Assembly: GCA_001872575.1 (NCBI GenBank)
Contig: MNWP01000006.1
Location: 10,679-74,678, forward strand
Reading direction: 5' to 3'
DNA length: 64,000 nucleotides
Source of the DNA: Candidatus Peregrinibacteria bacterium CG1_02_54_53
GTDB taxonomy: Bacteria; Patescibacteriota; Gracilibacteria; Peribacterales; Peribacteraceae
Positions 27,065 through 41,021 of this stretch are shown here, one piece after another (the first letter of the stretch is position 1; every line of letters starts with the position of its first letter). The notes beneath the pieces were generated by a model that ran no database searches, was not told where the DNA came from, and saw nothing but the letters and a program-made list of their open reading frames with translations. The translations under genes were made by a program, and so were the position numbers.

Positions 27065-27079
27065 TTGACCTGTTTTCTG

Positions 27080-27107
27080 TTGCTCCCATCGGGCGCATTG
27101 GTATGCT
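27080..27107 (+). promoter_or_regulatory. Putative sigma70 promoter of tRNA-Leu
   Basis: TTGCTC-16 nt-TATGCT with an extended TG, 15 nt upstream of the tRNA. Confidence 0.35.
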
Positions 27108-27118
27108 GCTCTTAAGCC

Positions 27119-28846
27119 TCATGCCGTGGTGGCGGAATTGGTAGACGCGCTAGCTTGAGGGGCTAGTGTCCGTTCTAGGACATGGGAGTTCGAGTCTCCC
27201 CCACGGCACCAAAGTTTCAGAACAGGCGAAAAATGAGCCTCCGCCTGTTTTTCGTCATGTTCTATGGCATCGGAGACTGTTTCTAACCGCATGTTTTGCC
27301 GAGCGAAGATCGCCTTGGCATCAAAGATAGTGGCAAACGGCTCTGCCAAGCTGAAAGTCAGCTTTCTGTCTTTGAGTTCTAACCGTTGTCCGAGCAGACC
27401 GAGAATCTCAATCTTCACTTTCCGTGAACTGGTTGCATATTTCTCTTTGAGTTTCTGCGTGATGCTGAGCGCAGTGATGATCTCCTGTGTCCACTGTGAG
27501 GCATTGGCATCAAAGTCTTGAATGAGCGCTGCTTGGTGCTTCTTGTCCTTCTCCATCTGTTCCAGCTTCGGCTTGAACGTTTCTTCGGGCAGTGCGGTTG
27601 CTTCATCCAATTGTCTGTCCACCAATCTGTCTATCTTGCTCACAAGCCCCTTGTAGTCCTCTTGGTACTTCCTGAGGGTCTGCCTATGCTGATGCTTCCT
27701 GTCCGTCTGTGTCGCTCTGAGCTTCCTGAGTGTCCATTTCAACAGTGGCTCAGGAACATTCACAGTATCAACAACGGTAGCCAATTGCCGTTCAAGGTCG
27801 GGCTCCGTGGTGGAGCCCGACTGTTTGCACTGGCAACCCTTGCTGCGCTTTGAGCAGCGGTAGTACCTATACTCTCTCGTTTTGCCTTCTTGCTTGATGT
27901 ACTTCCTCTTCACATCCACGATGATCTTGCAGTTGCACTTGCCACAACACTCGCCGCAGTGGATGAGCCTGGAATAGGGAACCTCATTTTTGTGTGGTCG
28001 AGGTCTGCCTTTTCTCCCAAGTATTTCCTGCGCCTGATCGTATTCTGCAATGGAAATCATGGGTTTGTGCAGCCCTTGGCAGATTTCCCCATCCCACACA
28101 AACTCACCGTAGTAGAAAGGATTGGTGAAGACTTGGTAGAGAGTATTCCTGCTGAGCGGCCTTGACCCTTTTTTGCGCGAACCGAGAATAGTGAGTTTGA
28201 GTTTCTTCGTTGCATACGCAGTGATCTCAGGAACGGTCTTCGTTCCTGTGAGAAGCAAGTCCCAGCATGTTCGGACTTTCTCAAACCTTTCTGGGTCTAC
28301 AAACACCGCCCGTTCACCTTTGAGACCGTGGTAGTCGGGCAAGTAACCGATTGGAGAAACGCCGGGCTTCCAGCCCATCTTTGCTTTTTGCTTCATGCCT
28401 CGCTTCACATCCTTACCAAGGTCTATGGAGTACTGCGTTGCCATGCCGAACTCCAAGAGCATCATCAAGATGTTGTCACCGGGGAGATAGGTACGCTCTG
28501 GCGTGATGATGGCCTTGATGATTCCTTCTTGCAGCATCCACTGTATTTCGCCAGCCTCAATGGAGTTTCTAGCGAGTCGGTTGAGCTTCCAGCAGTAGAG
28601 CACCTCGATGATTCCCGCGAGGAAATCTTTGATCATCTGCTTATATTCATCTCGTTTACCGGGTTGCTTCGCTGACTTCTCCTCCGTGTACTTTTTGACG
28701 AGAGTATCTCCGGTTCGCTGGAGGATTTTCATGTTTTCCTCCTCCTGCCCCTCGGTGGAGAGGATTTGTTTCTCATCTCCTTCGGAGCTTTTACGGCAGT
28801 ACATCCCTGCCTTTCGGGATGCTTGGAATGTTGAGAACATGGTCAT
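27119..28846 (-). CDS. Large serine recombinase (integrase); 3' end runs antisense through the tRNA
   Basis: YCRKSS catalytic motif, WKLNRLARN, PIGY, NPFYYG, HKPMIS recombinase domain, Cys-rich Zn ribbon, coiled coil. Confidence 0.95.
   Translation of the reverse strand: MTMFSTFQASRKAGMYCRKSSEGDEKQILSTEGQEEENMKILQRTGDTLVKKYTEEKSAKQPGKRDEYKQMIKDFLAGIIEVLYCWKLNRLARNSIEAGEIQWMLQEGIIKAIITPERTYLPGDNILMMLLEFGMATQYSIDLGKDVKRGMKQKAKMGWKPGVSPIGYLPDYHGLKGERAVFVDPERFEKVRTCWDLLLTGTKTVPEITAYATKKLKLTILGSRKKGSRPLSRNTLYQVFTNPFYYGEFVWDGEICQGLHKPMISIAEYDQAQEILGRKGRPRPHKNEVPYSRLIHCGECCGKCNCKIIVDVKRKYIKQEGKTREYRYYRCSKRSKGCQCKQSGSTTEPDLERQLATVVDTVNVPEPLLKWTLRKLRATQTDRKHQHRQTLRKYQEDYKGLVSKIDRLVDRQLDEATALPEETFKPKLEQMEKDKKHQAALIQDFDANASQWTQEIITALSITQKLKEKYATSSRKVKIEILGLLGQRLELKDRKLTFSLAEPFATIFDAKAIFARQNMRLETVSDAIEHDEKQAEAHFSPVLKLWCRGGDSNSHVLERTLAPQASASTNSATTA
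27123..27211 (+). tRNA. tRNA-Leu (anticodon GAG), CCA encoded
   Basis: Acceptor stem gccgtgg/ccacggc, D-loop aattggtag, anticodon arm ctagc-ttGAGgg-gctag, long variable arm, T-loop gttcgag. Confidence 0.96.
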
Positions 28847-28868
28847 GGGGGGTAGTGATGTAGAAATG

Positions 28869-28980
28869 CCCAAAGAAGGCAGTCCTGGGACTCACATCAG
28901 CCAGAAGCCTCTGTGCAGGACTGCCATCTTTGGGGGCAGCAAAACACTGACTTCTGACGCGGTGATGTGAGTCCGCAGGA
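28869..28980 (-). promoter_or_regulatory. Structured leader with two interleaved stems upstream of the recombinase
   Basis: 28869-28887 pairs with 28916-28934 (18/19); 28888-28899 pairs with 28963-28974 (12/12). Confidence 0.65.
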
Positions 28981-28981
28981 A

Positions 28982-30235
28982 TCATAGCACAGGCGAGGGA
29001 AGAATGAGAGAGCGAAACTTGGGGTGTGGTTCGTATATCCACGTTTTCCCGTCAATATCCTTCACCCGTTGCAAAACACCGAGATAGACCAACTGGTCTA
29101 GGTGACGTTTCACGGTCTTGTAGTTTTTATCCAGGATGTCCGAGCCTTCCTTTGCGGTCACCTTTGATTCCGCATGGAAGACACTCAGTGCCTCTGCACG
29201 TTGCACTGGCATTGAAGATAGAGCCACTCGTTTGGCAGTAAGGAACTCCTGCTGCGTCACCTCTTCCTTGCCTTTGAGTATGGCAAGAGAACGACAGAGT
29301 GCTTTGAGTTGATGCAGCGCACGGAACGGTTCTTCTTTCTGTATTTCCTCGACCTCCTCAAATGTCTTCACTTCACCCTCTTCCGTTTCAAATTGTTGAG
29401 TGCGTGTACGCACCTCTCCACGGGCTCTTGCGACCAGTTCGGCAAGGAGGTTGAGTTGCCTCCGAATCTCCTCTGCTACTGGCTGCAACTGCACTCGGTA
29501 TTTACGGATTCCTCCACAAAGTGAAGTGATATAATCGGATGCAGTCTGCGATGCGGCAGTAATGCGCTCTTTGAGGTCTTCTGACCAAGCAATTCCAAAA
29601 CACTCTTCACGCTGCTCATCATTCAACTCTGAGACACGGATGGTGAGGAAACGAGCGCCCACTTGATTCATGTACCTTTGCCTCTGGCTGAGACCCATCG
29701 GAGTAACACAGCCGATGTGTGAAAAGGCAGCTTCATAGCGAATCGTGCCACGGGCTCCACTGTGTTTGGAAAAATTGCCATCGTAGATACTGACCAGATC
29801 GCTGAGAAGTTGTTTCACCGTCTCCTCACTGCGCCCGAAAAATGAGGTGTAGTCCTTCACGATGAAACACTTGCCATCGAGTTTCGGCAGCAAATCCTGG
29901 GGCTTTTCCTTGTTACTGAGTCCACTGATGAAAGGATTGGTGGTCAGCACGTCAATCATCACCGTGTCCACTGCCTTCGCAAGGAGCGTGACAAGTTGCG
30001 TCTTATTGGACGAAGGATTGCCGACCAGCATGATCCATATAGGGTTACGCTTCTCTATCTCCTTGCTAATGTAGGCGGCAAGTACGACCTCAACCAAGTC
30101 ATCATCCAGGAGACCGATTGTGCGTGTGCGTTCCAGCACATCCTCCAAGAGGAGGGGCGGGGTAGTGCCGCCCTTAGGAGTTTCTGTCCTTTGCGTTGGC
30201 AATGGTGAACTACCTATGGTCTGCGACTCTGACAT
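28982..30235 (-). CDS. MCM-like AAA+ ATPase/helicase with C-terminal wHTH
   Basis: Walker A-like GNPSSNKT, IVKD, IYDG..KHSG, GARF arginine-finger region, terminal KNYKTVKRHLDQLVYLGVL. Confidence 0.7.
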   Translation of the reverse strand: MSESQTIGSSPLPTQRTETPKGGTTPPLLLEDVLERTRTIGLLDDDLVEVVLAAYISKEIEKRNPIWIMLVGNPSSNKTQLVTLLAKAVDTVMIDVLTTNPFISGLSNKEKPQDLLPKLDGKCFIVKDYTSFFGRSEETVKQLLSDLVSIYDGNFSKHSGARGTIRYEAAFSHIGCVTPMGLSQRQRYMNQVGARFLTIRVSELNDEQREECFGIAWSEDLKERITAASQTASDYITSLCGGIRKYRVQLQPVAEEIRRQLNLLAELVARARGEVRTRTQQFETEEGEVKTFEEVEEIQKEEPFRALHQLKALCRSLAILKGKEEVTQQEFLTAKRVALSSMPVQRAEALSVFHAESKVTAKEGSDILDKNYKTVKRHLDQLVYLGVLQRVKDIDGKTWIYEPHPKFRSLILPSPVL

Positions 30236-30375
30236 TGAAGGAGTTGGGAAAGGGGAACGAGTTTCCATCTCTTGAATCGAGGGCTGGTTGCACCCGTGTA
30301 CGCTTCCGTCCATGTCAGTTCTTCGTCAAGGACAAGGACTTTTGGCTCTATGGTGTCTGAGCTAAAATGGGGCAT
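30214..30375 (-). CDS. Possible small hypothetical protein (53 aa)
   Basis: MPHFSSDTIEPKVLVLDEELTW... fills a gap in the co-directional operon. Confidence 0.3.
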   Translation of the reverse strand: MPHFSSDTIEPKVLVLDEELTWTEAYTGATSPRFKRWKLVPLSQLLQCQSRRP

Positions 30376-30430
30376 GTTCAATAGGGAAAAGAATCAAAGA
30401 TGCTAACTCCATCGGGGTTCTTTTCCTGTG

Positions 30431-30595
30431 CTAAGGAGGCTCTTCGTGATCGGGAATAGAGGGGTCAATCGCAAACTGCACCAACGCAATGAGCTTGGTT
30501 GCATAAGTCCTCGCCTGATCGTCGGTGATCTGCTTACCCGTGGCTTGTAACCAGGCCTCCTTGAAACTGCCGATGTCTGTATCGGTCAGGTTCAT
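30431..30595 (-). CDS. Small hypothetical protein (54 aa), not in the ORF track
   Basis: MNLTDTDIGSFKEAWLQATGKQITDDQARTYATKLIALVQFA...; ATGA coupling to the upstream gene. Confidence 0.7.
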   Translation of the reverse strand: MNLTDTDIGSFKEAWLQATGKQITDDQARTYATKLIALVQFAIDPSIPDHEEPP

Positions 30596-30837
30596 GGCTG
30601 AGACCAGAGAAGGGATTTGAGATGCTTGTGTGATGCCAGCAGACGAGAAGGCACCATTGACACCTCCCTTCCGCTTGCGAAAATCTGCAACAGCTTTTGA
30701 ATGTCTGCCGTATGCTCAAACTGAAACTCACTCCTCCTTTCATCAATCCTTTCAATCTTTACCAGTGGGATTCCTGCTGCATGGAGGAACGATGCCTGTG
30801 GTAAATCTGACGTATTGTACGTCTCATGTGTACTCAT
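30592..30837 (-). CDS. DUF5659-like small protein
   Basis: YNTSDLPQASFL...FQFE...HKHLKSLL pattern. Confidence 0.7.
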   Translation of the reverse strand: MSTHETYNTSDLPQASFLHAAGIPLVKIERIDERRSEFQFEHTADIQKLLQIFASGREVSMVPSRLLASHKHLKSLLWSQP

Positions 30838-30882
30838 GCCCGGCAGCATGAGCGGGAAACTTTTTGACCGAGAAAGAACCTT

Positions 30883-31641
30883 CTAGGGAATCTTTTTGAC
30901 CTCGATTCCGATACCCTCCCTGAAAGATATCCACTCCTCTTTGAGGTTCCTCAATGGAACATCAGAAAAACGGGAAACCAATTCAAGAAGTTTCTTCACA
31001 TCGTCTTTGGTCACATGTATTCGCATATCTTTTCGCAGATTGAGTTTCGATGTGACGTAATCATCCAGCTCTCGTTGCGTTTGATGTCCTTTGTCGCAAT
31101 GTTCCCAACAGAACTCCCAAATATATCGTCTTTTGGCCTTATTCAATGTTTGTCCGTTCTCTTCTTCTCCCTCCTTCCATATTCGATATGTTCGGAAATT
31201 AGTAATGCTATTACCAACTCGGAAAAAATTATCGTCATTATTTGCGGTTTCCTTACCCTTGCCCTGTGTTTGAAGCTGCTGAGATTGCTCTGTTCCGAGT
31301 CTATAACAAGTACTCAGATAATCACGGTAGCGAGTGAAGAACTCCTTTCTGCCCTCTCGTTGGTGCTTCTGTATGTCAGCTTCAATTGCGTCTGCTTTTG
31401 GTTCGGGCAAGATTACATCTCTCACAGATTGCAAATTAGGATGCCTGTAATCCTCTTCAAAAGTGAAACCCAAAAGCTCTACGAAGTCTTTTGGCACAGG
31501 AACAATCTCATTCGCATATCGTAGAAATATTGTGACCCCATCAAGCCAACTCCTCTCCTCCAAAGAACCTCTCTGCAAAGAATCCACTTGTGCAGCAAGT
31601 GCATCCAGCTCAGCAATAATCTGGTCTTTGTTCATGCTCAT
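30883..31641 (-). CDS. Hypothetical protein
   Basis: About 250-aa ORF co-directional with the element core genes. Confidence 0.7.
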   Translation of the reverse strand: MSMNKDQIIAELDALAAQVDSLQRGSLEERSWLDGVTIFLRYANEIVPVPKDFVELLGFTFEEDYRHPNLQSVRDVILPEPKADAIEADIQKHQREGRKEFFTRYRDYLSTCYRLGTEQSQQLQTQGKGKETANNDDNFFRVGNSITNFRTYRIWKEGEEENGQTLNKAKRRYIWEFCWEHCDKGHQTQRELDDYVTSKLNLRKDMRIHVTKDDVKKLLELVSRFSDVPLRNLKEEWISFREGIGIEVKKIP

Positions 31642-31676
31642 AATGCTCAAATCCTAGCCCATTGGTTCAGAAGAGA

Positions 31677-31964
31677 CTACATCTGTTCCTGTGAAACTTT
31701 TGCAGAGCTTGCGTACATCAGACCCAAGCAATTGCGGCATTTGAAATGCCCGAAGTCGGTGCTGTATAGGGACTCAAATAGTTCCTGGCAGTCTGCACAC
31801 AGAAAGAAATACCGATAACCATTCTTCAGGTTCGTGACTCGACCAACCACCTTGATAGCCTGTGAGCCAACCTGCAACACAGCACCTATTGCCTGGTTGG
31901 GAATGGCAGCCCTCACATCACCGATATGCAGCCTGTCACACTGTTCCAGGATGGGCTTTCTCAT
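31677..31964 (-). CDS. Small zinc-finger protein
   Basis: GYRYFFLCADC...LY...FKCRNCLGLMYAS (two CxxC). Confidence 0.72.
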   Translation of the reverse strand: MRKPILEQCDRLHIGDVRAAIPNQAIGAVLQVGSQAIKVVGRVTNLKNGYRYFFLCADCQELFESLYSTDFGHFKCRNCLGLMYASSAKVSQEQM

Positions 31965-32553
31965 GGTTGGATTGAGTAGGTGGAATACCCTGGTTGATCT
32001 GCATGTTCTGCGCCACAATTGCATTTTTTGCCCTCACCTGAATCTGTGGCATGGAGAGATTTTGGAGTGCCTGTGCTAGCCGAATGATCTGATCGTTGGA
32101 GCTTTCCATTCCCTTCCGAACTTCTGCCAAGTACTTCGTTCTTTCTGGGCTACAATCGAAAGCAAGGCCTCCCTCCTCTTGCTTATACTTGATTGCTGCA
32201 AACATACGTTCGTATGACCAGGCCTGGTTCCAAGCAGAGACAAGACGATGGATAAGGAGCTTTTTCTGCGGTGTATCGGAACCGAATTGATCTTCCAACT
32301 CATTGTAGATTCGCTCTATGCCATTCTTCATGTCTGCATCGGCAAGAGACATGGGAAGCTGCGGACTGTTGACGGAAGCATAGGCAAGGAGAGATGTTTG
32401 CAATTCTTGGTATTTCTTCTCCTCTTCTTTGGTGCGCTTACCCTTGTCGTGCAACTGGAAAAAAGTCTCTCTCTGCACACGATCTTGGGATTGGAGTTTG
32501 GACTCCTTCTTCTGCAACTGCTCACCTTTGACGAGTGCAAGTGTCGAAGACAT
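31936..32553 (-). CDS. Hypothetical helical protein of the element core
   Basis: 205 aa, helical, Q/N-rich tail; first gene of the leftward operon. Confidence 0.72.
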   Translation of the reverse strand: MSSTLALVKGEQLQKKESKLQSQDRVQRETFFQLHDKGKRTKEEEKKYQELQTSLLAYASVNSPQLPMSLADADMKNGIERIYNELEDQFGSDTPQKKLLIHRLVSAWNQAWSYERMFAAIKYKQEEGGLAFDCSPERTKYLAEVRKGMESSNDQIIRLAQALQNLSMPQIQVRAKNAIVAQNMQINQGIPPTQSNHEKAHPGTV

Positions 32554-32670
32554 GCGTAAATTGTATCTAAATCCTTAGGAGACCCTTCTCATGGACAGAA
32601 AGTCCTAGGAGAGAGAAGGCAATTCCTTTCGGCTTCAATACCGAGCCCCAAGAGACGTTCCATCAGTACA

Positions 32671-32702
32671 TGGTAACTTCGCGCTTTGCGCGAAGGTTAC
32701 CA
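32671..32702. promoter_or_regulatory. Strong hairpin in the divergent intergenic region
   Basis: tggtaacttcgcgc-ttt-gcgcgaaggttacca, 14 bp with one bulge. Confidence 0.55.
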
Positions 32703-32765
32703 GAAGAGTGAATGGTCTATCGAACCGCTCTCTTATCAAATCTGATCTGATAGACTGTACAACGA

Positions 32766-33755
32766 GTGAGTAGCGCACTGAAAATTGTTGGCTTGGTGAT
32801 CCGTTGGCCTCTCAGCGTTTTCCTGCTCCTCCTGAGCGTAACTGGCGTGATTACCGGGGATGTCATGGCAGGAATCGGTATTGCACTCATGGGGGCGGTG
32901 CTCTTGCCAGTGCTTCGACAGGTTGGGGGGATCAAGCTCACACCTTGGGTGCGTGTCGGTGTCGTTGCCGTGGGATTCATCGTTTTCGCCATCGGAGTTC
33001 CACGAAAGAGTTCATTGCCCACTCCGGTTGTTGAGACAGAGAGCATGTCATCCGCCACGTTCTCCGGCGGATCGCAGGGGAGCGTCGGTGAGTCGCAGCA
33101 AGTCTCTCAGACGGCGGAAGTTGTCTCCGTCATAGACGGTGACACCATCAGAGTGAAACTTGCCGATGGGAAGGAGCAGAAGGTGCGTGTCATCGGGCTC
33201 GATGCGCCGGAAGTAAGCCCCTTACAATGCTTCGGCAAGGAATCATCGAATCATCTCTCTTCGTTCATCGCAGGAAAGGGCGTGACGCTCGAAAGCGAAC
33301 CTCAGGATGACCGGGACATCTACGGTCGGCTTCTGCGCTATATCTCGTTCAATGGACAGGATATCGGCGCTGCGATGATTCGTGACGGCTATGCCGAGAG
33401 CTATCGCAAGTACCCGCATCCGCGCATTGAGTCCTACAACTCCCTTGAGGCGAGCGCCAAGGAGCGCAAGGCGGGTCTGTGGAGCGCCTGTGCGGCTCCG
33501 GTGGCCGTATCGAGCAAAGCTGCCGTGGCGACACCCCTCACTCAGCCGACGAGTCCGCAGCCCCAAGCGCAAACAGGAAATGGGGAGTGCGTCATCAAGG
33601 GAAATGTGAATGCCAAGAAAGATAGGATTTATCACCTTCCCGGTTGCGGGTCATACACACAAACGCAGATCAGACCGGGGGAAGGAGATAGATGGTTCTG
33701 TACAGAAGCGGAGGCGCAAGCGGCGGGGTTCCGAAAGGCTGGGAATTGTCGGTAG
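32766..33755 (+). CDS. Membrane-anchored thermonuclease (SNase) with C-terminal IKGN/Ada-like domain
   Basis: VIDGDT, VRVIGLDAPE, DIYGRLLRY, KAGLW; CVIKGN..IYHLPG..WFCTEAEAQAAGFR. Confidence 0.92.
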   Translation: MSSALKIVGLVIRWPLSVFLLLLSVTGVITGDVMAGIGIALMGAVLLPVLRQVGGIKLTPWVRVGVVAVGFIVFAIGVPRKSSLPTPVVETESMSSATFSGGSQGSVGESQQVSQTAEVVSVIDGDTIRVKLADGKEQKVRVIGLDAPEVSPLQCFGKESSNHLSSFIAGKGVTLESEPQDDRDIYGRLLRYISFNGQDIGAAMIRDGYAESYRKYPHPRIESYNSLEASAKERKAGLWSACAAPVAVSSKAAVATPLTQPTSPQPQAQTGNGECVIKGNVNAKKDRIYHLPGCGSYTQTQIRPGEGDRWFCTEAEAQAAGFRKAGNCR

Positions 33756-33757
33756 GT

Positions 33758-34351
33758 TTACTGGCTCAGGTATTCCTCTGCCTCTTCTTCGCTCATCAGA
33801 TGCATGAAGTCCTCCTTCCGTGGCGGTCGCATAGGCCTCTCCGTGGCCTTCAGACCGTTCTTCAGGACGTGGAGGAGTAATTCCCCGTACTGACCCCTTG
33901 AAACGTCCTTGTCCGCAATGAGGATGCCCTCCACGTCCCTCCATGTGGCGAATGGGAACGGGACTTCCGAGAGCAAGGATCGCATGTCCTGAAGGAAGAC
34001 GGAGGCACAGTTCTCAAAGAGTCCGTCACCACCGCGTTTTCCTCTGAGCAGAACCCAAGGATTCGCATGTGTACCCGTGATCCCGTATTCCACTTTCGGG
34101 AACATCGTGAGGTATCGAAAGTCGGTATAACCACCGGAAAAATGTGTGAATATCACTTCGTCCATGAGTACGCCGAGGGCGCAGAGGCACACAAAGAGAG
34201 AGCGGTATTTTCCATCTGCGACACTCGGAACGCGTTCTGCGAAGTCTTGAACATGGAAGTAGTCCTCATCCCCAAAATTGTGAGAGTACCGCCTGACGGC
34301 CTCTTGCAGGTCGAGGGGGAAGCGCCGATGGTAGTAGGTTTCTAGGGTCAT
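33758..34351 (-). CDS. Hypothetical protein
   Basis: 197-aa ORF with no recognised motif. Confidence 0.65.
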   Translation of the reverse strand: MTLETYYHRRFPLDLQEAVRRYSHNFGDEDYFHVQDFAERVPSVADGKYRSLFVCLCALGVLMDEVIFTHFSGGYTDFRYLTMFPKVEYGITGTHANPWVLLRGKRGGDGLFENCASVFLQDMRSLLSEVPFPFATWRDVEGILIADKDVSRGQYGELLLHVLKNGLKATERPMRPPRKEDFMHLMSEEEAEEYLSQ

Positions 34352-34387
34352 CAGGTGTCAGTACGAAAGATGCATCATCGCCGGATT

Positions 34388-35287
34388 CTACGGTAGCCAT
34401 CCGCGCAGCCGAGCGGCAATCTTCGCTGCTAACTTCACTGTCTCCGGTGTGATGTAGCCGAGTCTCACATTGCGTTCGTAGAAGCCAATGATGTAGTAGG
34501 TCATACGAGAGGTGTGGTATCCGTAATACAGTGGAGAACCAAAGCCCAAGTACACAGCCACAAGGTCAGTCAGTATCTCATTCTGCGCCGGATCGGGGGC
34601 ATCCATTCTATGCTCATGCATGTAGTGATGTGTGGATTCGTGAGCGAGGATTGCGACGATGTTCTCGATTCTAAACTCCTTGTTTCGTCGTATGCAGATT
34701 TCCCTTTGCCATTGGTTCTTTGCCTGATAAGAACCTGCGTGATTCTCATTATCATTCCAATCCGTCACACGGACTTTCACAGGAACGTGGATGCCGAGAA
34801 AGGCAGCCATGTGTTCAGCAATGCGCTGAAGTGAAGGCTCCGCAAAGTCTGAGTCCTGTGCCTCGGTTTCCATCCATCGTGGAAGTTCGTACAGACCGTT
34901 GACTGATGTCGGGGGCTGCGGTGTTTGCTCATGTATTCGCTTCAACAGAGCTTCAATTTCTTCCTGTGGAATCTGTTTTCGCTTTCCCGAAAATAATTCA
35001 TCAAGACCGGGTTGCCCCGGAAACATCGCTTGAAAGACCTTTGAGAAGTCCTGGCTCGGATCGTATGCCCAACTTCGACGCATATCGTCTACAGCCCTCA
35101 TAAGACCGCGCCAGATATTCAATAATCTTGATCGAAAACGGCGGAAGTGATTCTCGAAAGAATAGACGCGCAAGTTTCGCCTAAAGTTGTAAGCGGCCTC
35201 CTTGAGTGGCTCCGACATTGTGCTGAGCAGCTTCCTCATTCGCTGCTCACTTCTTTCCGCCGATTCCGACTCTTTGGAAGACTTCAT
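34388..35287 (-). CDS. HExxH zinc metallopeptidase-like protein
   Basis: HAGSY, ILAHESTHHY, NEILTDLVAVYLGFG. Confidence 0.75.
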   Translation of the reverse strand: MKSSKESESAERSEQRMRKLLSTMSEPLKEAAYNFRRNLRVYSFENHFRRFRSRLLNIWRGLMRAVDDMRRSWAYDPSQDFSKVFQAMFPGQPGLDELFSGKRKQIPQEEIEALLKRIHEQTPQPPTSVNGLYELPRWMETEAQDSDFAEPSLQRIAEHMAAFLGIHVPVKVRVTDWNDNENHAGSYQAKNQWQREICIRRNKEFRIENIVAILAHESTHHYMHEHRMDAPDPAQNEILTDLVAVYLGFGSPLYYGYHTSRMTYYIIGFYERNVRLGYITPETVKLAAKIAARLRGWLP

Positions 35288-35303
35288 TGTTGAAGGAAAT
35301 GGC

Positions 35304-36509
35304 TCAATAACAAACCGCCGGAGCCGCACGGAACTCCTTTTCGATTTCCGACACATCATGCTCGATTCGTTCGTAATCGAATCGCCAAGGATCGCGTTGA
35401 ACATTCAACGTGTTATCAAACTGTTCCGACCACTCCGACCAGTAATAATCCGTAAGGGGTATCTCGGTGGGATTGATGGCTCGGTATATGGCGAGGTAAT
35501 CGTTGAACAGTGGGATGAACCGTCCCTCAATCTCATCGAGGATGGTGATGCAACGAGACCCGTTCTCCTGCCGAGCCAGTTCTTGGGCTTGCGCGACCAT
35601 CCTCTCATGGAGCTTGTCCCATGCGGCGATCTTGCCCTTCATGCGTTCGAGCAGAAGCGGATCAGGTGAACATGTCTGAGATTGAGGTTCTGTTCCATCT
35701 GGGAAGAGGCAGGAAGCGTTTTTGAGTGTGCAGGTGACGCTTTGTTGCCCATCAATGCACAGAGAAACAGGTTCACATTCCCAGTCATACTGTGTACACC
35801 GATAGTAAGTTGTTCCTGAGGTCTTCGACGATGTAGAGGGAGCAGAAGTCCCGCGCTGGGCAGGAGCAGTCGGCAGTTGATAAGCCTTCCCTTCCGCAGC
35901 ACAGTTCGGATACACCAAACCCCTTTTCAGTCGGTCGAGCATCACCACCATCTCCGCGCGGTTCATATTGTTGGAGGGGCGCACTTTTTCTGTCCCAGCA
36001 TCACCTTGCAAGATGCAGTTCGAGGCGGCGAGGCGTATAGCCTCCGTGAACCACTGACCCTCAGGGTTATCTTGGAAGGCAGGGGCTTCTCCTTGGAGAC
36101 CGATGCCGAAGGCACGTTGGAGGATCGCAGAGGCCTCAGCACGATTGATAGGGCTTTCGGGCTTCGCAAGACAAGGGTGAGTACCCAGGCAGCTTCCTGC
36201 CCCCTTCATCCATCCTGAGGCTGCTGCTTGCTCAAAGGGAGCGTAGTAGACAGCGTTCGGGCTCACGTCATCGAAGCTCTGTCCCGTAGAAGCCACGGTG
36301 ACCCCGCCTTGCAGTTTGACGATGAGTTCGATGAACTCCGCTCGCGTGGCGTTATCTCCCGGCCTGAAGGCCGTGTTGCCGGGGAAGTATCCGGCATCCG
36401 TGAATGCGGAGACCGTATGGGCATACCACGCGCCCTGAGACACGTCCGGCGGGGCGGCGAAGACCGTGAAGGGAAGAAGACCAATAATGAGAAGAAGTGC
36501 AGTTCTCAT
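35304..36509 (-). CDS. Secreted SLH (S-layer homology) domain protein
   Basis: Signal peptide; three SLH repeats (TRAEF, NRAEA, NRAEM); Cys-rich C-terminal part. Confidence 0.9.
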   Translation of the reverse strand: MRTALLLIIGLLPFTVFAAPPDVSQGAWYAHTVSAFTDAGYFPGNTAFRPGDNATRAEFIELIVKLQGGVTVASTGQSFDDVSPNAVYYAPFEQAAASGWMKGAGSCLGTHPCLAKPESPINRAEASAILQRAFGIGLQGEAPAFQDNPEGQWFTEAIRLAASNCILQGDAGTEKVRPSNNMNRAEMVVMLDRLKRGLVYPNCAAEGKAYQLPTAPAQRGTSAPSTSSKTSGTTYYRCTQYDWECEPVSLCIDGQQSVTCTLKNASCLFPDGTEPQSQTCSPDPLLLERMKGKIAAWDKLHERMVAQAQELARQENGSRCITILDEIEGRFIPLFNDYLAIYRAINPTEIPLTDYYWSEWSEQFDNTLNVQRDPWRFDYERIEHDVSEIEKEFRAAPAVCY

Positions 36510-36540
36510 GGAAAGAGGGGAAGTGTAGGTGGATATACCC

Positions 36541-36672
36541 AAGCGGGCATCCAACCTGGCACTCCTACTGCACCGCTCCTTGCGGAGATCGGACGGTAGG
36601 CAGGCGGATGCCCGCTAAGACCGTCGTTTCTCCGTGGGGAAAATCCCCAAGGGTGCGATGCCGTAGGAGTGC
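36541..36672 (-). promoter_or_regulatory. Structured leader (multi-stem hairpin plus pseudoknot) upstream of the SLH gene
   Basis: agcgggcatcc/ggatgcccgct, gcactcctac/gtaggagtgc, gacggt/accgtc, cggaga/tctccg, gggga-aaa-tcccc. Confidence 0.65.
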
Positions 36673-36732
36673 GTCAGTATGTTACTACTGCTTCACAGGC
36701 TTTGCACTGCATCAATCCTGTAAAATGAAGGC

Positions 36733-37630
36733 ATGTGTGCGATCACCATCCGTCATCACTACCTCCCACAGTGCTACCTCAGAGGATTTCTTGATGAAGA
36801 GGGATACCTGCATGTCTACGACAAACAAGAGCAACGCTTTTTCTCTACCAAAGGAACCAATGACGTTTTTCAAGAGAAGCACCGGAACTCGATACAATCT
36901 CCCCTCACAGGAGAAAGGCATGATGTGTTTGAGGGGCTCTATTCAGACTTTGATTCTCTGATGGCACCACTGTTGAAGAAGATCATTGATTCCAAGTCTA
37001 CCGAACCTCCACCTCTCGACTTGGAAGAAAGATGGAAAATGATGCTCTGTCTGGGCTTTCTTTACTGGCGTGTTCCTTCCAGGGATGCACAGGGCAAGGA
37101 ACTGGTAAACAGGTTTGGATTCAGAAGTGACTTCTTCAACATTCACGACAAAAAAACAGGTAAGCCCATTTCCGATGAAGAGATGCGGAAAATTGCAGGT
37201 TTTGACGGCATGGACACCGCCTACAAGATGGGGCTTTCTTTTGCACCGTTTTACAGCGCAGAAAGCTACAAAACTGCACAGCATTGGAAGTTCTTGTACC
37301 AAGACCCAGGTTTTCACATCACTGGTGACAACCCGATACTGTGTCGAAAAGACGCGCAGGATTTCAAAGAGATTCTTGATGAGTTCATTTTTCCCGTCTC
37401 ATCAGGGATGAGTTATCATCAGCAACAAACATTACCCAAACCAAAACCCTGGGCGCGATTTCTGCTTCAAGTTGAGTGTGGCGATCATTGAGCAAGCTCA
37501 TCGTTTTGTCTGCGCCAGGAACATGGATTATTTGAAACTATTGGTCAATTTGCATCAACGGTCTCATCAGGTATTTTCAAAGGCAGGAACAAATGTGATG
37601 GAGTACCTATACGATGAGAAGAGGTTTTGA
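36733..37630 (+). pseudogene. DUF4238 domain protein with an apparent frameshift near 37410
   Basis: RHHYLPQCYLRGF, WRVP, ITGDNP. A shifted frame continues VIISNKH...VAIIEQAHRFVC to a stop at 37630. Confidence 0.72.
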
Positions 37631-37664
37631 GTCGGAATGCTCCACTGTTCCGATCTTACATTTC

Positions 37665-38162
37665 ATGGCTATACTGGATGTGATGAAAAAAATCATTGAG
37701 ATTTTGGGCAAAGTAGTAGTCGCAGTGGTCAGCATCGGTTTTTTTGCGGCATGGTTGGCACTGCCAATCTACAATGATTACTCATGGGATGATGCGGTCA
37801 TTCGGCAAAGAGAGACAGAAGGATGGGCAGTTGCATCCACCCTTGGCAATGTAATTGACATAACTGCACCGTGGACAATCTTCAAACAACCGATTGACCA
37901 GATCGCCTTTGTAAAACCCGATGAGATTAGCATTGCGCCAACGGGATTCATCTTCATAGATGTTCTGTGGGTACGACGCGGGATGAGAAAAGAGACTGAG
38001 AGCGAAACATCCTTTACTGCCTTTGATTGTGAACGGGGCATGAGTGCGTATGTGGATTTGGATGAAAAAGATTTGGGCAAAGCATTGCAGTTTGAGTGGC
38101 GCAGTTTCAATGAAGGTCTGCCAGGTCACGATGTGATTTCTTTTGTTTGCAGCCATGTATAG
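37665..38162 (+). CDS. Hypothetical membrane-anchored protein
   Basis: N-terminal TM, then a soluble domain with two Cys. Confidence 0.7.
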   Translation: MAILDVMKKIIEILGKVVVAVVSIGFFAAWLALPIYNDYSWDDAVIRQRETEGWAVASTLGNVIDITAPWTIFKQPIDQIAFVKPDEISIAPTGFIFIDVLWVRRGMRKETESETSFTAFDCERGMSAYVDLDEKDLGKALQFEWRSFNEGLPGHDVISFVCSHV

Positions 38163-38409
38163 AGTCCTCGCCATTCTTTGCAAAATCTTCTACATCATCT
38201 GGGGTGCGGGTTATGCTTTCCTTTTTCTTTTTTCGCTCTACGTTCGTTTCGTAGCCGAGCCAACAATCACTCACGGAATTGGGGCGGTTCTGTCAGCAAA
38301 CGATCCCCTCAGTACCGCGCAAACTATTACCTCCATTCTTCTCCTACTACCTGCGATACTGGCGTATCAGGGTGAGCAATTTTTCACAAAAAAAGCCAAT
38401 GGTAGATGA
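38155..38409 (+). CDS. Small two-TM membrane protein
   Basis: Two hydrophobic segments; overlaps both neighbours in operon fashion. Confidence 0.6.
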   Translation: MYRVLAILCKIFYIIWGAGYAFLFLFSLYVRFVAEPTITHGIGAVLSANDPLSTAQTITSILLLLPAILAYQGEQFFTKKANGR

Positions 38410-38989
38410 ACTGAAACAGTTACTCCCTCCTCCTGGGTGTTGGCTGTTTGGGAAAGATGCCCCAAAGCCTGATGAGAACGGGAAGTTTCTTGAAATGTTC
38501 AAGGAACCAGAGGAGGCAAAGATCGTGATTGAGAAATACCAAGGCAGCCATGCCAATGCCGTTGATCTCCTGGGAGAGGCAAAACTGCTTTACCAGAATA
38601 AACGATATGCCAGAGCGGTTGCGTTGGGTATCTCAGCCTGGGAAGAGTTGGGCAAGTCACAGATGGCTGCTGACTACTACACGGGCGTGATACCTGAACC
38701 TGTATATAAGAAGGCATTTACGGATCACAGAGCCAAAACCTCATATCTGCACCGAACAGCAGTGGTGAAATCTACTGGCAAGATGGGCGTTGTCTATGAC
38801 AAGCAATCAGGAGAAGCCCTGGAAAAAATACGGCAGGACGCACTGTACATTTCCGATTCAAGCACCCCAGACAAATACACCAAGGAAGATGCTGAGTTCA
38901 TCATGCAAAGAGTCTTTGAGCATCTGCACTTCATTCACTACGCAGAGGAATTGAATGATCGCATCGGGTCAAAAGGGATATTCAAATAG
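38399..38989 (+). CDS. AbiV-family abortive infection protein
   Basis: NAVDLLGEAKLL..YARAVALGISAWEELGK, DHRAK, RQDALY. Confidence 0.85.
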   Translation: MVDELKQLLPPPGCWLFGKDAPKPDENGKFLEMFKEPEEAKIVIEKYQGSHANAVDLLGEAKLLYQNKRYARAVALGISAWEELGKSQMAADYYTGVIPEPVYKKAFTDHRAKTSYLHRTAVVKSTGKMGVVYDKQSGEALEKIRQDALYISDSSTPDKYTKEDAEFIMQRVFEHLHFIHYAEELNDRIGSKGIFK

Positions 38990-39080
38990 CTCTCTATGGA
39001 CACCAACTCCTAGGTCAGGTTGAGGCTTTGGAACCTACTCAGAGAGCCCACCACGGTTCTAACTTCGTACAGTCTGGCGC

Positions 39081-39612
39081 ACCATTCGTCCCGCAATTGC
39101 GGGACTCATGGCAAGCCATATGTTGCATGTCTACATCCTTGAACTGGAAAATGACTCCTATTATGTCGGTCATACCGACAACCTACGACGAAGACTGATG
39201 GAGCATGAACAAGGAATTGCATGTTCACATACGAAAAAATATCCGATGAAGCAACTCCTTTGGTCAGAGTCACAGCCAAATCGGAATGCTGCTCGCATGA
39301 GGGAAATTGAGATCAAGGGTTGGCGACGCAAAAAGAAGGAACGTCTCTGGCAGAAAGTGAGCTTGCCCTGACGAGAGAAGCGAGGAAGGGTCTCCCCCAC
39401 GGCACCATTCGTCGGCCCTTTGGGCCTCCTCATGGTGAACCATTCTACTGCTTCTCTTGAATAAGCCCGATATTTCCTACAAGCAGCCGAGGCGAATGAC
39501 AGTGAGCGTAGCGAAGCGAAGCCGGGCATATCGATTTCAACTGAAACCAGATAGTAAGCTGTTCTATCCTCGTTACCATTCGTCCCGCAATTGCGGGACT
39601 CATGGCAAGCCA
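39081..39612. repeat. Three CCA-TTCG-hairpin-CTCA-TGG units plus a duplicated tRNA 3' end
   Basis: accattcgtcccgcaattgcgggactcatggcaagcca at 39081 and 39575, a variant at 39404; gtctcccccacggcacca at 39390-39407 is identical to 27194-27211. Confidence 0.88.
39120..39371 (+). CDS. Stand-alone GIY-YIG nuclease
   Basis: HVYIL, YYVGHTDNLRRRLMEH, AARMREIEIKGW. Confidence 0.92.
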   Translation: MLHVYILELENDSYYVGHTDNLRRRLMEHEQGIACSHTKKYPMKQLLWSESQPNRNAARMREIEIKGWRRKKKERLWQKVSLP

Positions 39613-39645
39613 CATGTTTCATGTTTACATTCATTCACTCAATAG
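39602..39645 (+). pseudogene. 5' remnant of a second GIY-YIG gene
   Basis: atggcaagccacatgtttcatgtttacatt (MASHMFHVYI) parallels the start at 39108 and is cut off at the convergent gene. Confidence 0.6.
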
Positions 39646-41021
39646 CTCAGATCATCCAATAACAGGTACTGCTCGCCGTTCTGTTCCGCAATTTCTTTGC
39701 GTTCGCGGTATTTCTCAATGAGAGGAGCAGACAACTCAAGCACGCGCAGCAGAGGCTCCACATTTTCTCTATATTGCGCAGAGATAGCTGGAGGACGGAT
39801 TTCAAAGGGAATGGTTTCAATAGGAGTGAGTGTGCTGTCTGGGTTGAGTTGCAGAAGGTGGAAGTCCCCGGATTGCATTGGATGTAATTGATTTTCGTAC
39901 CAGAAGGATCGCAGTGCTTCTCGAATACCCGTTTGTTCAATGGCATTGAAGGACTCTACCTTAATGACACGCCTAAAGTGCAGGAAAGCAGCATCAGGAT
40001 CTTCGAAGAGGAATGCAAATATTCGGGTATTCTGCTCGCGTGGGCCGGTCATTGCCTCAATGGTTTGCACAGGGAATCCTTGTTTTTGTTTCAAGAGTGC
40101 GATGGAACCGAAAGGAATATTGGTCTCTCCGTTGAAAAAGCTCTGTTGCAGGATGATTTTTCCCGACAGTGTGTGATAGGCATGATCGGTAAAATTCGAC
40201 GAGAGTATTTCGTAGGCTCCGGTACGCAGGTGATACCGCACTGTCCCCCAGTGATTGCGATCAAGTACACTGAAGAGAAGCGTCTGATTGTCGATGAAAA
40301 ACGGCGAAAAGTGGAGTTGCTCAGAATCGAATGAGGGGGCAGAAAGTGTGCGACTGTCCCAGCTGAGCGTATCAATAAGTGTAATGCGTGAAAGCGTGTT
40401 ATGGCTTAAGAGAGCAAGGGACATTTCTGTCGGAGAAAGAACGATTGTGTGTTGCATAGGGATACCCAACCTTTCAAAAAGTTGTTCTGGCGAATACCAT
40501 TCTTCCCTCGCCGGAAGGGAGATATTTTCGATTTCTCCACATTCAGAATATCGAACATGAAGATGTGGATGATCCTCTTCGTCCGTAAGGAAGTAGACAA
40601 AGTTGGTATCACGACTGAGGTACACGAGTGGACTATTCTCTTCGTCCGTAAGCAGCTTGTAGTTGTACGGAGATCCCATATCTTGTACATGTGCCTGGTT
40701 GCCAGAACCGATGAGCGTTGCTCTCGGCGAAACAAGGCGAAGTTCTGTGGAATACTCGTTGCTACTTTGCAGTATTTTTCTTGAGTACACCAGTCCTGTT
40801 CTAAACGTATGAGTGGCATAGACGTCCTGGTCAGTGCCTTTCCGAAAGAGCAATGCCTGCAATGTTACTTTAGCCCGGATTTCATTTGGATCGTTGACAG
40901 GCTGCATCAGTGATGAAATCAGAACGAACGTTGAATATGCGAAAGCGCACAAAAGAACAACACATACGATCACATGTTTCCAGGTGCGGAACACGGCCAA
41001 GATGTATGGGGGCACACGCAT
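39639..41021 (-). CDS. Hypothetical membrane-anchored beta-rich protein
   Basis: N-terminal TM; 460 aa. Confidence 0.75.
   Translation of the reverse strand: MRVPPYILAVFRTWKHVIVCVVLLCAFAYSTFVLISSLMQPVNDPNEIRAKVTLQALLFRKGTDQDVYATHTFRTGLVYSRKILQSSNEYSTELRLVSPRATLIGSGNQAHVQDMGSPYNYKLLTDEENSPLVYLSRDTNFVYFLTDEEDHPHLHVRYSECGEIENISLPAREEWYSPEQLFERLGIPMQHTIVLSPTEMSLALLSHNTLSRITLIDTLSWDSRTLSAPSFDSEQLHFSPFFIDNQTLLFSVLDRNHWGTVRYHLRTGAYEILSSNFTDHAYHTLSGKIILQQSFFNGETNIPFGSIALLKQKQGFPVQTIEAMTGPREQNTRIFAFLFEDPDAAFLHFRRVIKVESFNAIEQTGIREALRSFWYENQLHPMQSGDFHLLQLNPDSTLTPIETIPFEIRPPAISAQYRENVEPLLRVLELSAPLIEKYRERKEIAEQNGEQYLLLDDLSY

Follow-up and report, generated by a model that had tools for sequence, protein, structure and literature searches.

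A large serine recombinase element at the 3' end of a Peregrinibacteria tRNA-Leu gene that probably splits its own integrase gene on integration

The 64,000-nt stretch of DNA analysed here (hereafter the window; all coordinates are window positions) comes from Candidatus Peregrinibacteria bacterium CG1_02_54_53 (GTDB lineage Bacteria; Patescibacteriota; Gracilibacteria; Peribacterales; Peribacteraceae), assembly GCA_001872575.1, contig MNWP01000006.1, positions 10,679-74,678 of the forward strand. Its sole tRNA gene, tRNA-Leu(GAG), is followed directly by a gene for a large serine recombinase (LSR) that runs towards and into the tRNA, by further genes, some with counterparts in other islands, and by units that encode GIY-YIG nucleases (Table 1). 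We consider it probable that 27212-39084 is an 11.9-kb LSR element and that its integration split its own integrase gene. Below we describe the two ends of this element, compare them with those of related islands and weigh the alternatives.

The LSR frame is open from 28873 (27119-28873, 584 aa) and the database form of the protein, P0002, has 561 aa, with Met at 28802-28804. Pfam scans, which covered 17 open reading frames (ORFs), identified Resolvase (PF00239, E 2.1e-14, residues 24-167) and Recombinase (PF07508, E 1.7e-06, residues 200-286) in the window LSR; PF13408 failed the E 0.001 threshold on this protein and is precomputed for most homologs. Across 36 aligned relatives R4 and S6 (residue numbers of P0002) never vary, the window protein being among the aligned set, and C283, C286, C317 and C326 are invariant in the LSR family alignment, which also includes it. 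The AF2 model of the window LSR has long helices at 352-399 and 407-450, typical of the zinc-ribbon/coiled-coil part. The protein is a large serine recombinase with resolvase, recombinase, zinc-ribbon and coiled-coil parts.

The native part of the gene covers 27212-28804. No stop codon interrupts the frame before the tRNA: TGG-TGC lies over the last six tRNA bases, with the W codon complementing CCA at 27209-27211 and the C codon at 27206-27208, and is followed by 28 antisense codons (27122-27205) and a stop at 27119-27121, such that the translation ends in VLKLWCRGGDSNSHVLERTLAPQASASTNSATTA. The original prediction had the ORF crossing the left junction at TGG-TGC and continuing antisense through the whole tRNA-Leu, with which both the sequence and ARAGORN agree; its remaining sequence statements were likewise correct on rechecking. 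The T-loop of the tRNA, GTTCGAGT, is at 27188-27195. The tRNA is the B arm of the bacterial attachment site attB and is intact after integration.

At the far end the core GCACCA recurs and the minus strand of 39007-39108 reads VPQLRDEWCARLYEVRTVVGSLSRFQSLNLT between two stop codons, with E after the second. This reading contains an orphan LSR 3' end, in which the W and C codons of the core precede 22 further codons (ARLYEVRTVVGSLSRFQSLNLT, 39013-39078) and a stop at 39010-39012. Another stop codon lies seven codons upstream of the orphan W, which places the chromosomal orphan tail outside any sizeable ORF. Only circularisation would bring the tail into frame with the LSR body. Core, in-frame tail and stop had all been predicted at these positions and the minus-strand translation agrees; the in-frame orphan tail also supports the claim that excision would give the enzyme a different tail.

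G005 and G003, which are the closest relatives (87% and 86% identical across purB and the tRNA), lack the element: immediately behind the CCA of their tRNA comes the end of the conserved gene whose start in the window is at 39639. In G004 the tRNA is followed by a homolog of 39408-39513 and then by a GIY-YIG gene. Everything from 27212 to about 39631 is variable in the genus, and the tRNA-Leu(GAG) locus is a hot spot across it. In tblastn searches of the genus loci with the island proteins, matches were limited to the tRNA-antisense tail, which accounts for every genus locus that gave a match, and to the GIY-YIG protein in L008. Base composition fails to mark the island and Rfam finds nothing besides the tRNA in 26900-39900. 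Two further arrangements were seen at this locus: G001 carries an extra 65-nt copy of the 3' part of the tRNA (L006 1029-1093, 95% identical), and in G001 and G007 (L005) the tRNA is inverted relative to purB and the sequence following it begins like the attL arm of the window and encodes no LSR.

LSR relatives occur in 75 of 121 genomes of the same family, and the best 29 loci other than the window's own were examined. A tRNA stands at the 3' end of the LSR gene in 24 of these, the other five lying mostly at contig ends, and TGG is read in frame as W on entering the tRNA in 23 of the 24 (L043 enters in another phase). The targets are tRNAs for Leu, Thr (three anticodons), Gly (two), Cys, Glu (two), Phe, Lys and Ser. 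Integrated tails range from two residues beyond the W (WSR or WSG, then stop) to more than 80. Since they vary in both length and sequence, no specific integrated tail is conserved, and at most the loss of the native helix, not the gain of a new tail, could matter.

A wider scan, with one genome per species from many phyla, yielded 575 relatives, of which the best 80 were examined. They come from Peribacteria or Peregrinibacteria, Saccharibacteria, Moraniibacteriota, Paceibacterota and other groups of the candidate phyla radiation (CPR), as well as from metagenome-assembled genomes labelled Gammaproteobacteria, Bdellovibrionales, Elusimicrobiota, Omnitrophota, Verrucomicrobiota, Planctomycetia and others. 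At 53 of these 80 loci the frame of the LSR gene enters a tRNA called by ARAGORN, in phase 0 (n=30) or phase 2 (n=23) and never in phase 1. Both classes read the T-loop as D/E-S-N, and phase 2 loci have L, V, I or M in place of W; by our reading the two share one frame with respect to the tRNA body, and the called tRNA end differs where CCA is not encoded. Among the other 27, three have a tRNA-Thr downstream on inspection (L092, L093 and L098), about ten have tRNA-antisense-looking tails at contig ends and at least seven have a contiguous tail. The clade spans at least 13 tRNA identities. Judged from these loci, targeting of the tRNA 3' end appears to be the normal design of a large LSR clade. 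The original prediction regarded tRNA targeting as less typical of serine integrases; in this clade it is the rule.

Right ends were searched in the window and in ten relatives with long contigs, over 40 kb on the island side of each, by means of a combined criterion: the tRNA 3' end repeated over at least 6 nt plus an in-frame reading W-x6-[IVL][RT][TSK]. One consensus-fitting site each was found in 10 of the 11 islands, that of the window being 39084, and the islands thus bounded are 6.7-39 kb long. Joint matches of core and tail numbered 11 against 0.83 expected, the opposite-strand control giving none among 161 core sites; the eleventh is a second match in G141 and looks like chance. With 6-nt cores, the tails read WCARLYEVRTVVGS... 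(window), WSSLVEEVRTILTGS... (G009 and G041), WSSWIEEVRT... (G048), WSSLLEQVRK... (G075) and WSSKLEEVRT... (G012); the core has 9 nt in G141 (WWPVVEAIRTFWA...) and 10 nt in G116 (WSGLLESITT...) and in G134 and G090 (WQPL(V/G)E(T/M)IRTFWA...). A search for the longest repeat as attR gave misleading candidates in G048, G075, G012 and G130, and the motif-guided search was used instead. The closest element, in G118 (LSR 74% identical, also at a tRNA-Leu), is on a 16,064-nt contig that ends inside the island. On the strength of the shared motif-bearing right ends we take the right boundary, as settled, to be 39084.

The tail that the circular form would encode is also found contiguously in homologs. 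Among 120 database homologs, most of which end in tRNA-antisense tails, a strict pattern retrieves three with the contiguous tail, P0005 (52% identical, ...WCTVLDDVRT...), P0025 and P0048; variants are seen by eye in P0020, P0042, P0044 and P0104, and W-less forms in more distant proteins. A profile search gave 150 representatives that are similarly mixed (e.g. P0172, P0185, P0187, P0190, P0206 and P0220). A rough regular expression divides them into 20 that are short after the W, 47 tRNA-antisense, 12 with the motif and 71 others, many of which fit the first three classes by eye. In viral contigs no relative was found with the single protein and seven distant ones with the profile, of which only L080 (...LGDLDDVRT...) was informative. 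In a PDB sequence search the alignments stopped short of the tail. A tail conserved among homologs had been predicted as W-x5-VRT; the conservation stood and the spacing did not, since the motif is W-x6-[IV]-R-T.

The tail DNA shows signs of coding constraint. The tails of G009 and G041 (22 codons) differ at 5 of 66 bases, all third-position and synonymous, compared to 15 synonymous and 15 non-synonymous differences in the last 100 codons of the LSR body. Between G134 and G090 the differences at codon positions 1, 2 and 3 number 3, 4 and 12 (64/84 identical), and similarity stops at the stop codon, the next 150 nt being unrelated. The Arg codon of the motif varies (AGA, AGG and CGA), and conservation spans 20-27 codons, which is more than a half-site.

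The same bases resemble a tRNA T-loop. The [IV]-R-T codons, RTT-MGA-AC, are the complement of GTTCKAAY, a T-loop look-alike, which in the window is GTTCTAAC. In 10 of 10 islands the distance from the CCA end to the start of this GTTC-type motif is 29 nt in the P arm, as compared to 24 nt in the tRNA. For LI integrase, Rutherford et al. (PMC3783163) describe a zinc-ribbon-domain motif whose position differs by 5 bp between attP and attB, the latter site being shorter by about 10 bp. The 5-bp offset found here matches that shift; it supports the view that these are real LSR attachment sites and that the tRNA T-arm is the recognised B half-site. If crossover occurs near the middle of the 6-nt core, the half-site arms are about 25 and about 20 bp long. 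An inverted GTTCT...AGAAC pair is centred about 8 nt off the core and was not used as an attP dyad.

The tail is predicted to be part of a helix. In the AF2 model of P0048, which has a contiguous tail and is 43% identical to the window LSR (46-row alignment, mean predicted local distance difference test (pLDDT) 85.3), W530 is inside a helix at 520-547 with a pLDDT of 76-78. In the model of the integrated form of the window LSR (mean pLDDT 80.7) the equivalent helix ends at W532 and residues 534-561 have a pLDDT below 50. Integration is thus predicted to swap the second half of a C-terminal helix for a disordered stretch. Foldseek matches the P0048 model to SPbeta integrase (9dxd_A, E 1.6e-17) as well as to 9tep_A, 9iu2_A and 4kis_C, the matches including phiC31, Bxb1 and LI integrases.

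We propose that the LSR inserts the element exactly at the 3' CCA end of tRNA-Leu(GAG) using GCACCA as the 6-bp common core. The attP core would lie inside the 3' end of the LSR gene itself, by which integration would keep the tRNA whole and detach the last 22 codons to the far end. The circle alone would encode a complete LSR, with a C-terminal helix that carries W-x6-[IV]-R-T. This full-length enzyme would pair the T-loop mimic of the P half-site, located 5 bp further out and made of the bases that encode [IV]-R-T, with the tRNA T-arm as B half-site. Strand exchange would occur within the last few tRNA bases, after which the LSR would read on into the tRNA. Excision would be performed by the tail-swapped enzyme together with the product of orf54. 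A small recombination directionality factor (RDF), for which orf54 is the candidate, most likely determines the direction of excision, as is ordinary for such enzymes. The tail swap would then be a consequence of the position of attP, one that may modulate activity. Of this account, the arrangement of the parts and its conservation, the 5-bp offset, the conserved tail and the frame fixed across the clade are observed, and the mode of excision is inferred.

The candidacy of orf54 is based on both distribution and modelling. The product has 54 aa and no Pfam family at E<=1. With tblastn it is matched in nine of the ten islands compared, at a distance of 3.3-5.9 kb from the tRNA, and an alignment of the homologs covers about 48 residues. 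Complex models of LSR residues 270-561 with orf54 scored 0.75, 0.75 and 0.77, versus 0.32 for the best of three controls. Of solved complexes 58 of 80 reach the mark used, and of mismatched pairs 2 of 110; these counts hold only roughly here, as the analysis's own alignments were supplied. The runs agree in at least 84% of contacts, with a partner pLDDT of at least 79. The contacts are on LSR residues 348-365, 441-471 and 487-493, which in the AF2 model are both coiled-coil ends and the adjoining zinc-ribbon domain. The RDF of SPbeta binds at the same coiled-coil/zinc-ribbon region of its integrase (PMC11722253), and canonical LSRs in general have the RDF at the coiled-coil hinge, where the small protein is modelled here. 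Since solved LSR-RDF complexes exist, the pass of the orf54 model may reflect likeness to them. The modelling supports predicted binding of the orf54 product to the LSR, as a candidate RDF. The original prediction recognised no RDF gene, which seems doubtful given the occurrence of orf54 in nine islands and its complex model.

A number of observations weigh against the proposed account. GCACCA by itself is at chance level, with 36 matches in the window against 32.7 expected, which renders the site at 39079-39084 meaningful only via the comparative evidence; and an exact copy of the last 18 tRNA nucleotides at 39390-39407 (two occurrences against 0.04 expected) forms a formal alternative boundary. 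G004 is the sole relative in the genus in which homologous sequence directly follows the tRNA; as it has neither the LSR element nor the first GIY-YIG unit, it cannot tell the boundaries 39084 and 39407 apart. In G130 no attR was found within 40 kb. No matching motif was found in the P' or B' arms. The synonymous changes are from two closely related pairs only, and the [IV]-R-T codons share their bases with the T-loop-like motif, the conservation of which could be for DNA binding alone. The right-end modules of G134 (tRNA-Glu) and G141 (tRNA-Phe), i.e. the tail plus 150 nt beyond, are 80-87% identical, compared to only about 60% for the last 300 nt of the LSR bodies; the likeness of these tails may come from recent exchange rather than from selection, and element ends appear to be exchanged as modules. 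Finally, L123, L149 and L164 have a contiguous [VF]-R-T tail within contigs of 112-409 kb; these may be tandem islands in which a neighbour supplies the tail, cases with attP elsewhere, or large extrachromosomal replicons.

The conserved tail could be nothing but an attP half-site, in which the enzyme binds the T-loop mimic and the peptide has no role, the ORF simply running to the next stop. The fixed position of the GTTCKAAY complement favours this, as does codon usage, since Val is always encoded by GTT (6/6) and contiguous relatives mostly have GTT-CGA-AC. The 20-27 conserved codons exceed a half-site of about 25 bp, however, and the 5/5 synonymous changes between G009 and G041, the excess of third-position changes between G134 and G090 and the three different Arg codons point to constraint on the peptide, as does the prediction of the stretch as a helix continuous with the preceding residues. 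We regard this explanation as possible, though tentative.

A second alternative goes further than the proposed account in that the tail swap is a control device. The full-length enzyme would integrate, the truncated one would differ in directionality, response to the RDF or half-life, and recombination would thus toggle the enzyme. The tail is indeed conserved with signs of coding constraint, and the predicted helix that carries it is lost in the integrated form. In SPbeta integrase, an essential C-terminal helix of the RDF flanks Int F532, near the C-terminus, which is said to matter for directionality (attributed to Abe et al.), and the idea itself was raised for dsiB by McMurdie et al. (PMC3146451). 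On the other hand, integrated tails of 2 to more than 80 residues leave only loss of the native tail as a possible signal, the constraint on the motif may be at the DNA level, and the presence of a conserved RDF candidate, orf54, makes a built-in switch unnecessary. As a control device the swap is doubtful; that such a toggle sets directionality or commitment throughout the clade, e.g. that only the full-length form integrates and only the truncated one answers the small RDF, we consider unlikely.

It is more unlikely that the element is a fixed, immobile remnant and the split gene a decaying integrase. Four contig-assembled runs (X1-X4, of 10 groundwater/aquifer runs) were inspected over 26800-39900, and their contigs show the integrated form only, with no island-skipping or circle joint; as contigs drop rare variants, this is uninformative on excision. 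In run X1 the depth of the island is 36.5, versus 37.5 and 34 for the flanks, and contigs bridge both integrated junctions, as would be expected of a fixed element. Against decay, the 561-aa frame is intact and retains R4, S6 and the four Cys (invariant in alignments that include this protein), the orphan tail is intact and in frame, and absence of the element from G005 and G003 makes the insertion recent on the genus scale.

It is highly improbable that the element ends at the 18-bp repeat, includes the GIY-YIG gene and has a mere chance GCACCA at 39084. Besides the rarity of the 18-mer, the 20-bp repeats from the T-loop reported for Dehalococcoides ssrA islands with serine integrases (PMC3146451) and the position of the G004 homolog of 39408-39513 directly behind the tRNA speak for that end. 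The tail read from 39407, however, has 45 aa, is antisense to the GIY-YIG gene and lacks the family motif, and the other nine islands with an identified right end have cores of 6-10 nt. Moreover, the repeat is explained by another family of elements. The unit at 39085-39407 consists of a 5' hairpin, a gene (39108-39371), a 3' end in ...GAAGG (reading ...GAGGAAGG) and the 18-nt tRNA-Leu copy at 39390-39407, with GAAGG and copy together at 39385-39407. The pattern CCATTCG[AT]C-hairpin-CTCATGG, which begins at 39082 in the window, has 17 copies in the 1.37-Mb genome and none in the reversed control. Seven copies start exactly at the CCA of a tRNA called by ARAGORN (Arg-tcg, Val-cac, Met, Ile-tat, Arg-tct, Pro-tgg and Ala-tgc), several further ones begin at tRNA-3'-like fragments, and in three tandem pairs the unit end ...GAAGG is followed by a 17-19-nt copy of a tRNA 3' end. 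None of the other copies adjoins an LSR. Because 39085-39407 has both family-typical ends and LSR-free copies exist at other tRNAs, the 18-bp repeat is the terminal duplication of the GIY-YIG unit, and the original prediction of the boundary at 39084 stands where its alternative at 39407 fails. The unit would have sat directly behind the tRNA before the LSR element arrived; among the loci compared, no genus relative carries 39085-39407 without the LSR element.

The consensus of these units runs from CCA followed by TTCG[AT]C, a hairpin and CTCATGG(C/T)RA(G/A)CCA... to ...CTTG(T/C)CCTGA...GAAGG plus the 17-19-nt tRNA copy. Copies are found in the window at 39085-39407, 39404-39574 and 39575-39639 (the last a truncated 5' copy that adjoins the conserved chromosomal gene) and on genome contigs C5, C8, C12, C17, C20, C27, C32 and C36; some form tandems at a spacing of 82-90 bp, and an 87-aa GIY-YIG nuclease gene is present in one full-length copy. 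The family looks like a tRNA-targeting GIY-YIG mobile unit with deleted derivatives. One contig of X2, another groundwater run, leads from 39613 through 8 other letters back to 39085, which suggests a different tandem arrangement of these units in a related population.

Within the element, tblastn against the ten other islands identifies a shared backbone of LSR, orf443, orf115, orf205, the SNase-domain protein and orf54. The product of orf443 shares 67% identity with its counterpart in the G116 island and 23% with those of three other islands, and the gene adjoins the LSR gene in several islands. Its Pfam matches (E 0.0038-0.054) fail the cut-offs; going by them it may be a replication or initiator-like protein, the element's own initiator. 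The SNase gene and orf115/orf205 are near the right end of the 29-34-kb islands of G009, G041, G134, G090 and G141. Upstream of the LSR start, before orf443, is an inverted repeat that could be a terminator or operator. The SNase, DUF4238 and HEPN_AbiV cargo looks defence-related. No relaxase, coupling protein or VirB4 family was found among the 17 ORFs scanned with Pfam, and PHROGs, which covered 10 island ORFs, gave a single match, of unknown function (E 0.0087). At 36418-36419 run X1 has a second, equally deep contig (33.8 of 67.1) with TG>GA and further divergence close by, reflecting either two coexisting island variants or a repeat elsewhere.

Table 1. Features of the tRNA-Leu(GAG) locus, with the element and its attachment sites listed first.
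Feature	Position	Strand	Basis or remark
tRNA-Leu(GAG)	27123-27211	+	ARAGORN; Rfam RF00005, 54 bits; sequence
attL core GCACCA, last 6 nt of the tRNA	27206-27211		Minus-strand LSR reading W-C
LSR gene, integrated state, 561 aa	27119-28804	-	ORF list, translation, Pfam
attR core GCACCA, right end of the element	39079-39084		Repeat and in-frame tail search; 39085 onwards is the usual post-CCA sequence
Orphan LSR 3' end	39010-39084	-	Translation and island comparison
T-loop-like motif	39056-39063	+	P arm; complement encodes V-R-T of the orphan tail
orf54, candidate RDF	30431-30595	-	tblastn, alignment, complex model
Inverted repeat	28869-28934		19-nt arms 28869-28887 and 28916-28934, 95% complementary
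orf443, conserved backbone gene	28982-30313	-	Weak Parvo_NS1 P-loop (76-120) and winged-helix (371-432)
DUF5659 protein	30592-30849	-	Pfam
orf255, orf197, orf338, orf182	within 30592-38989		Further backbone or cargo ORFs
orf115 and orf205	31677-32553	-	Common to 4-6 other islands
SNase-domain protein	32766-33755	+	Pfam; common to 4-6 other islands
SLH-domain protein	35304-36554	-	Pfam
DUF4238 protein	36733-37491	+	Pfam
HEPN_AbiV protein	38279-38989	+	Pfam
GIY-YIG unit, full-length, outside the LSR element	39085-39407	+	Pfam GIY-YIG, E 4.6e-13; 18-mer repeat; family ends
Older remnants after the tRNA	39408-39638	+	39408-39513 homologous to post-tRNA-Leu sequence in G004; repeat and genus alignments

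The SPbeta (SprA/SprB), phiC31 (Int/gp3), Bxb1 and A118/LI systems share with the present element the domains, the coiled-coil insert, the whole-length fold and a short core. To our knowledge, the attP of canonical LSRs is outside the integrase frame, so that the same protein is made before and after integration, and their targets are protein-coding genes or intergenic sites, not a tRNA CCA end. Archaeal SSV-type tyrosine integrases have attP inside the integrase gene and a tRNA target, and the gene is split and inactivated in two large parts; they are unrelated to the serine recombinase described here, which loses only its last 22 codons. In mycobacteriophage BPs, whose integrase is also a tyrosine recombinase, attP is inside the repressor gene and integration changes the C-terminus of the repressor, whereas here the altered protein is the integrase itself.

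The same architecture has already been published for Dehalococcoides dsiB (McMurdie et al. 2011, PMC3146451) and for the rumA integrases of streptococcal integrative and conjugative elements (ICEs; Ambroset et al. 2016, PMC4701971). In the ssrA islands of the former, the serine integrase DsiB (about 540 aa) adjoins attL and faces a tRNA-like 3' end, and its authors propose that DsiB is maybe fully functional only on the circular element. As here, the integrase ORF overlaps attL and has its stop codon outside the island. DsiB islands target tmRNA (ssrA) with a 20-bp repeat from the T-loop, while ordinary tRNAs and a 6-10-nt CCA-end core are used here; no counterpart was found among the ORFs scanned here of their integration module of six genes (DsiA, RecF-like, ParB, Mom and others, one of them a second small serine recombinase); and the tails are reported there as divergent, without recovery of a conserved excised-form tail. 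The streptococcal ICEs use a single serine integrase, have one repeat in the target and the other inside the integrase gene, and integration alters the C-terminus in sequence and length, all of which resembles the present case. They insert into a protein-coding gene and also exchange the 3' end of that gene, in contrast to the tRNA left intact here, and they are conjugative, whereas the 17 ORFs scanned here yielded no conjugation family. We found no printed description of a tRNA-CCA-targeting clade, of the conserved excised-form tail or of the T-loop mimic, subscription journals and supplementary files, in which att-site tables relevant to prior art may exist, lying outside the search; the main text of Durrant et al. 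2022 does not mention tRNA.

Serine integrases are prized for genome engineering because they are strictly one-way, and how the direction of an LSR is set is still being worked out structurally. In the present clade nature itself provides an enzyme with one extreme C-terminus in the free element and another in the integrated one, adjoining the region where the directionality factors of SPbeta act, and the speculation of 2011 on dsiB is now testable with two defined isoforms and a candidate RDF. This should mainly concern those who work on serine integrases and on the mobile elements of CPR bacteria. The clade is common in these bacteria, for which few genetic tools or mobile elements have been described, and since it uses the conserved tRNA T-arm as attB half-site across at least 13 tRNA identities, its choice of target may be predictable.

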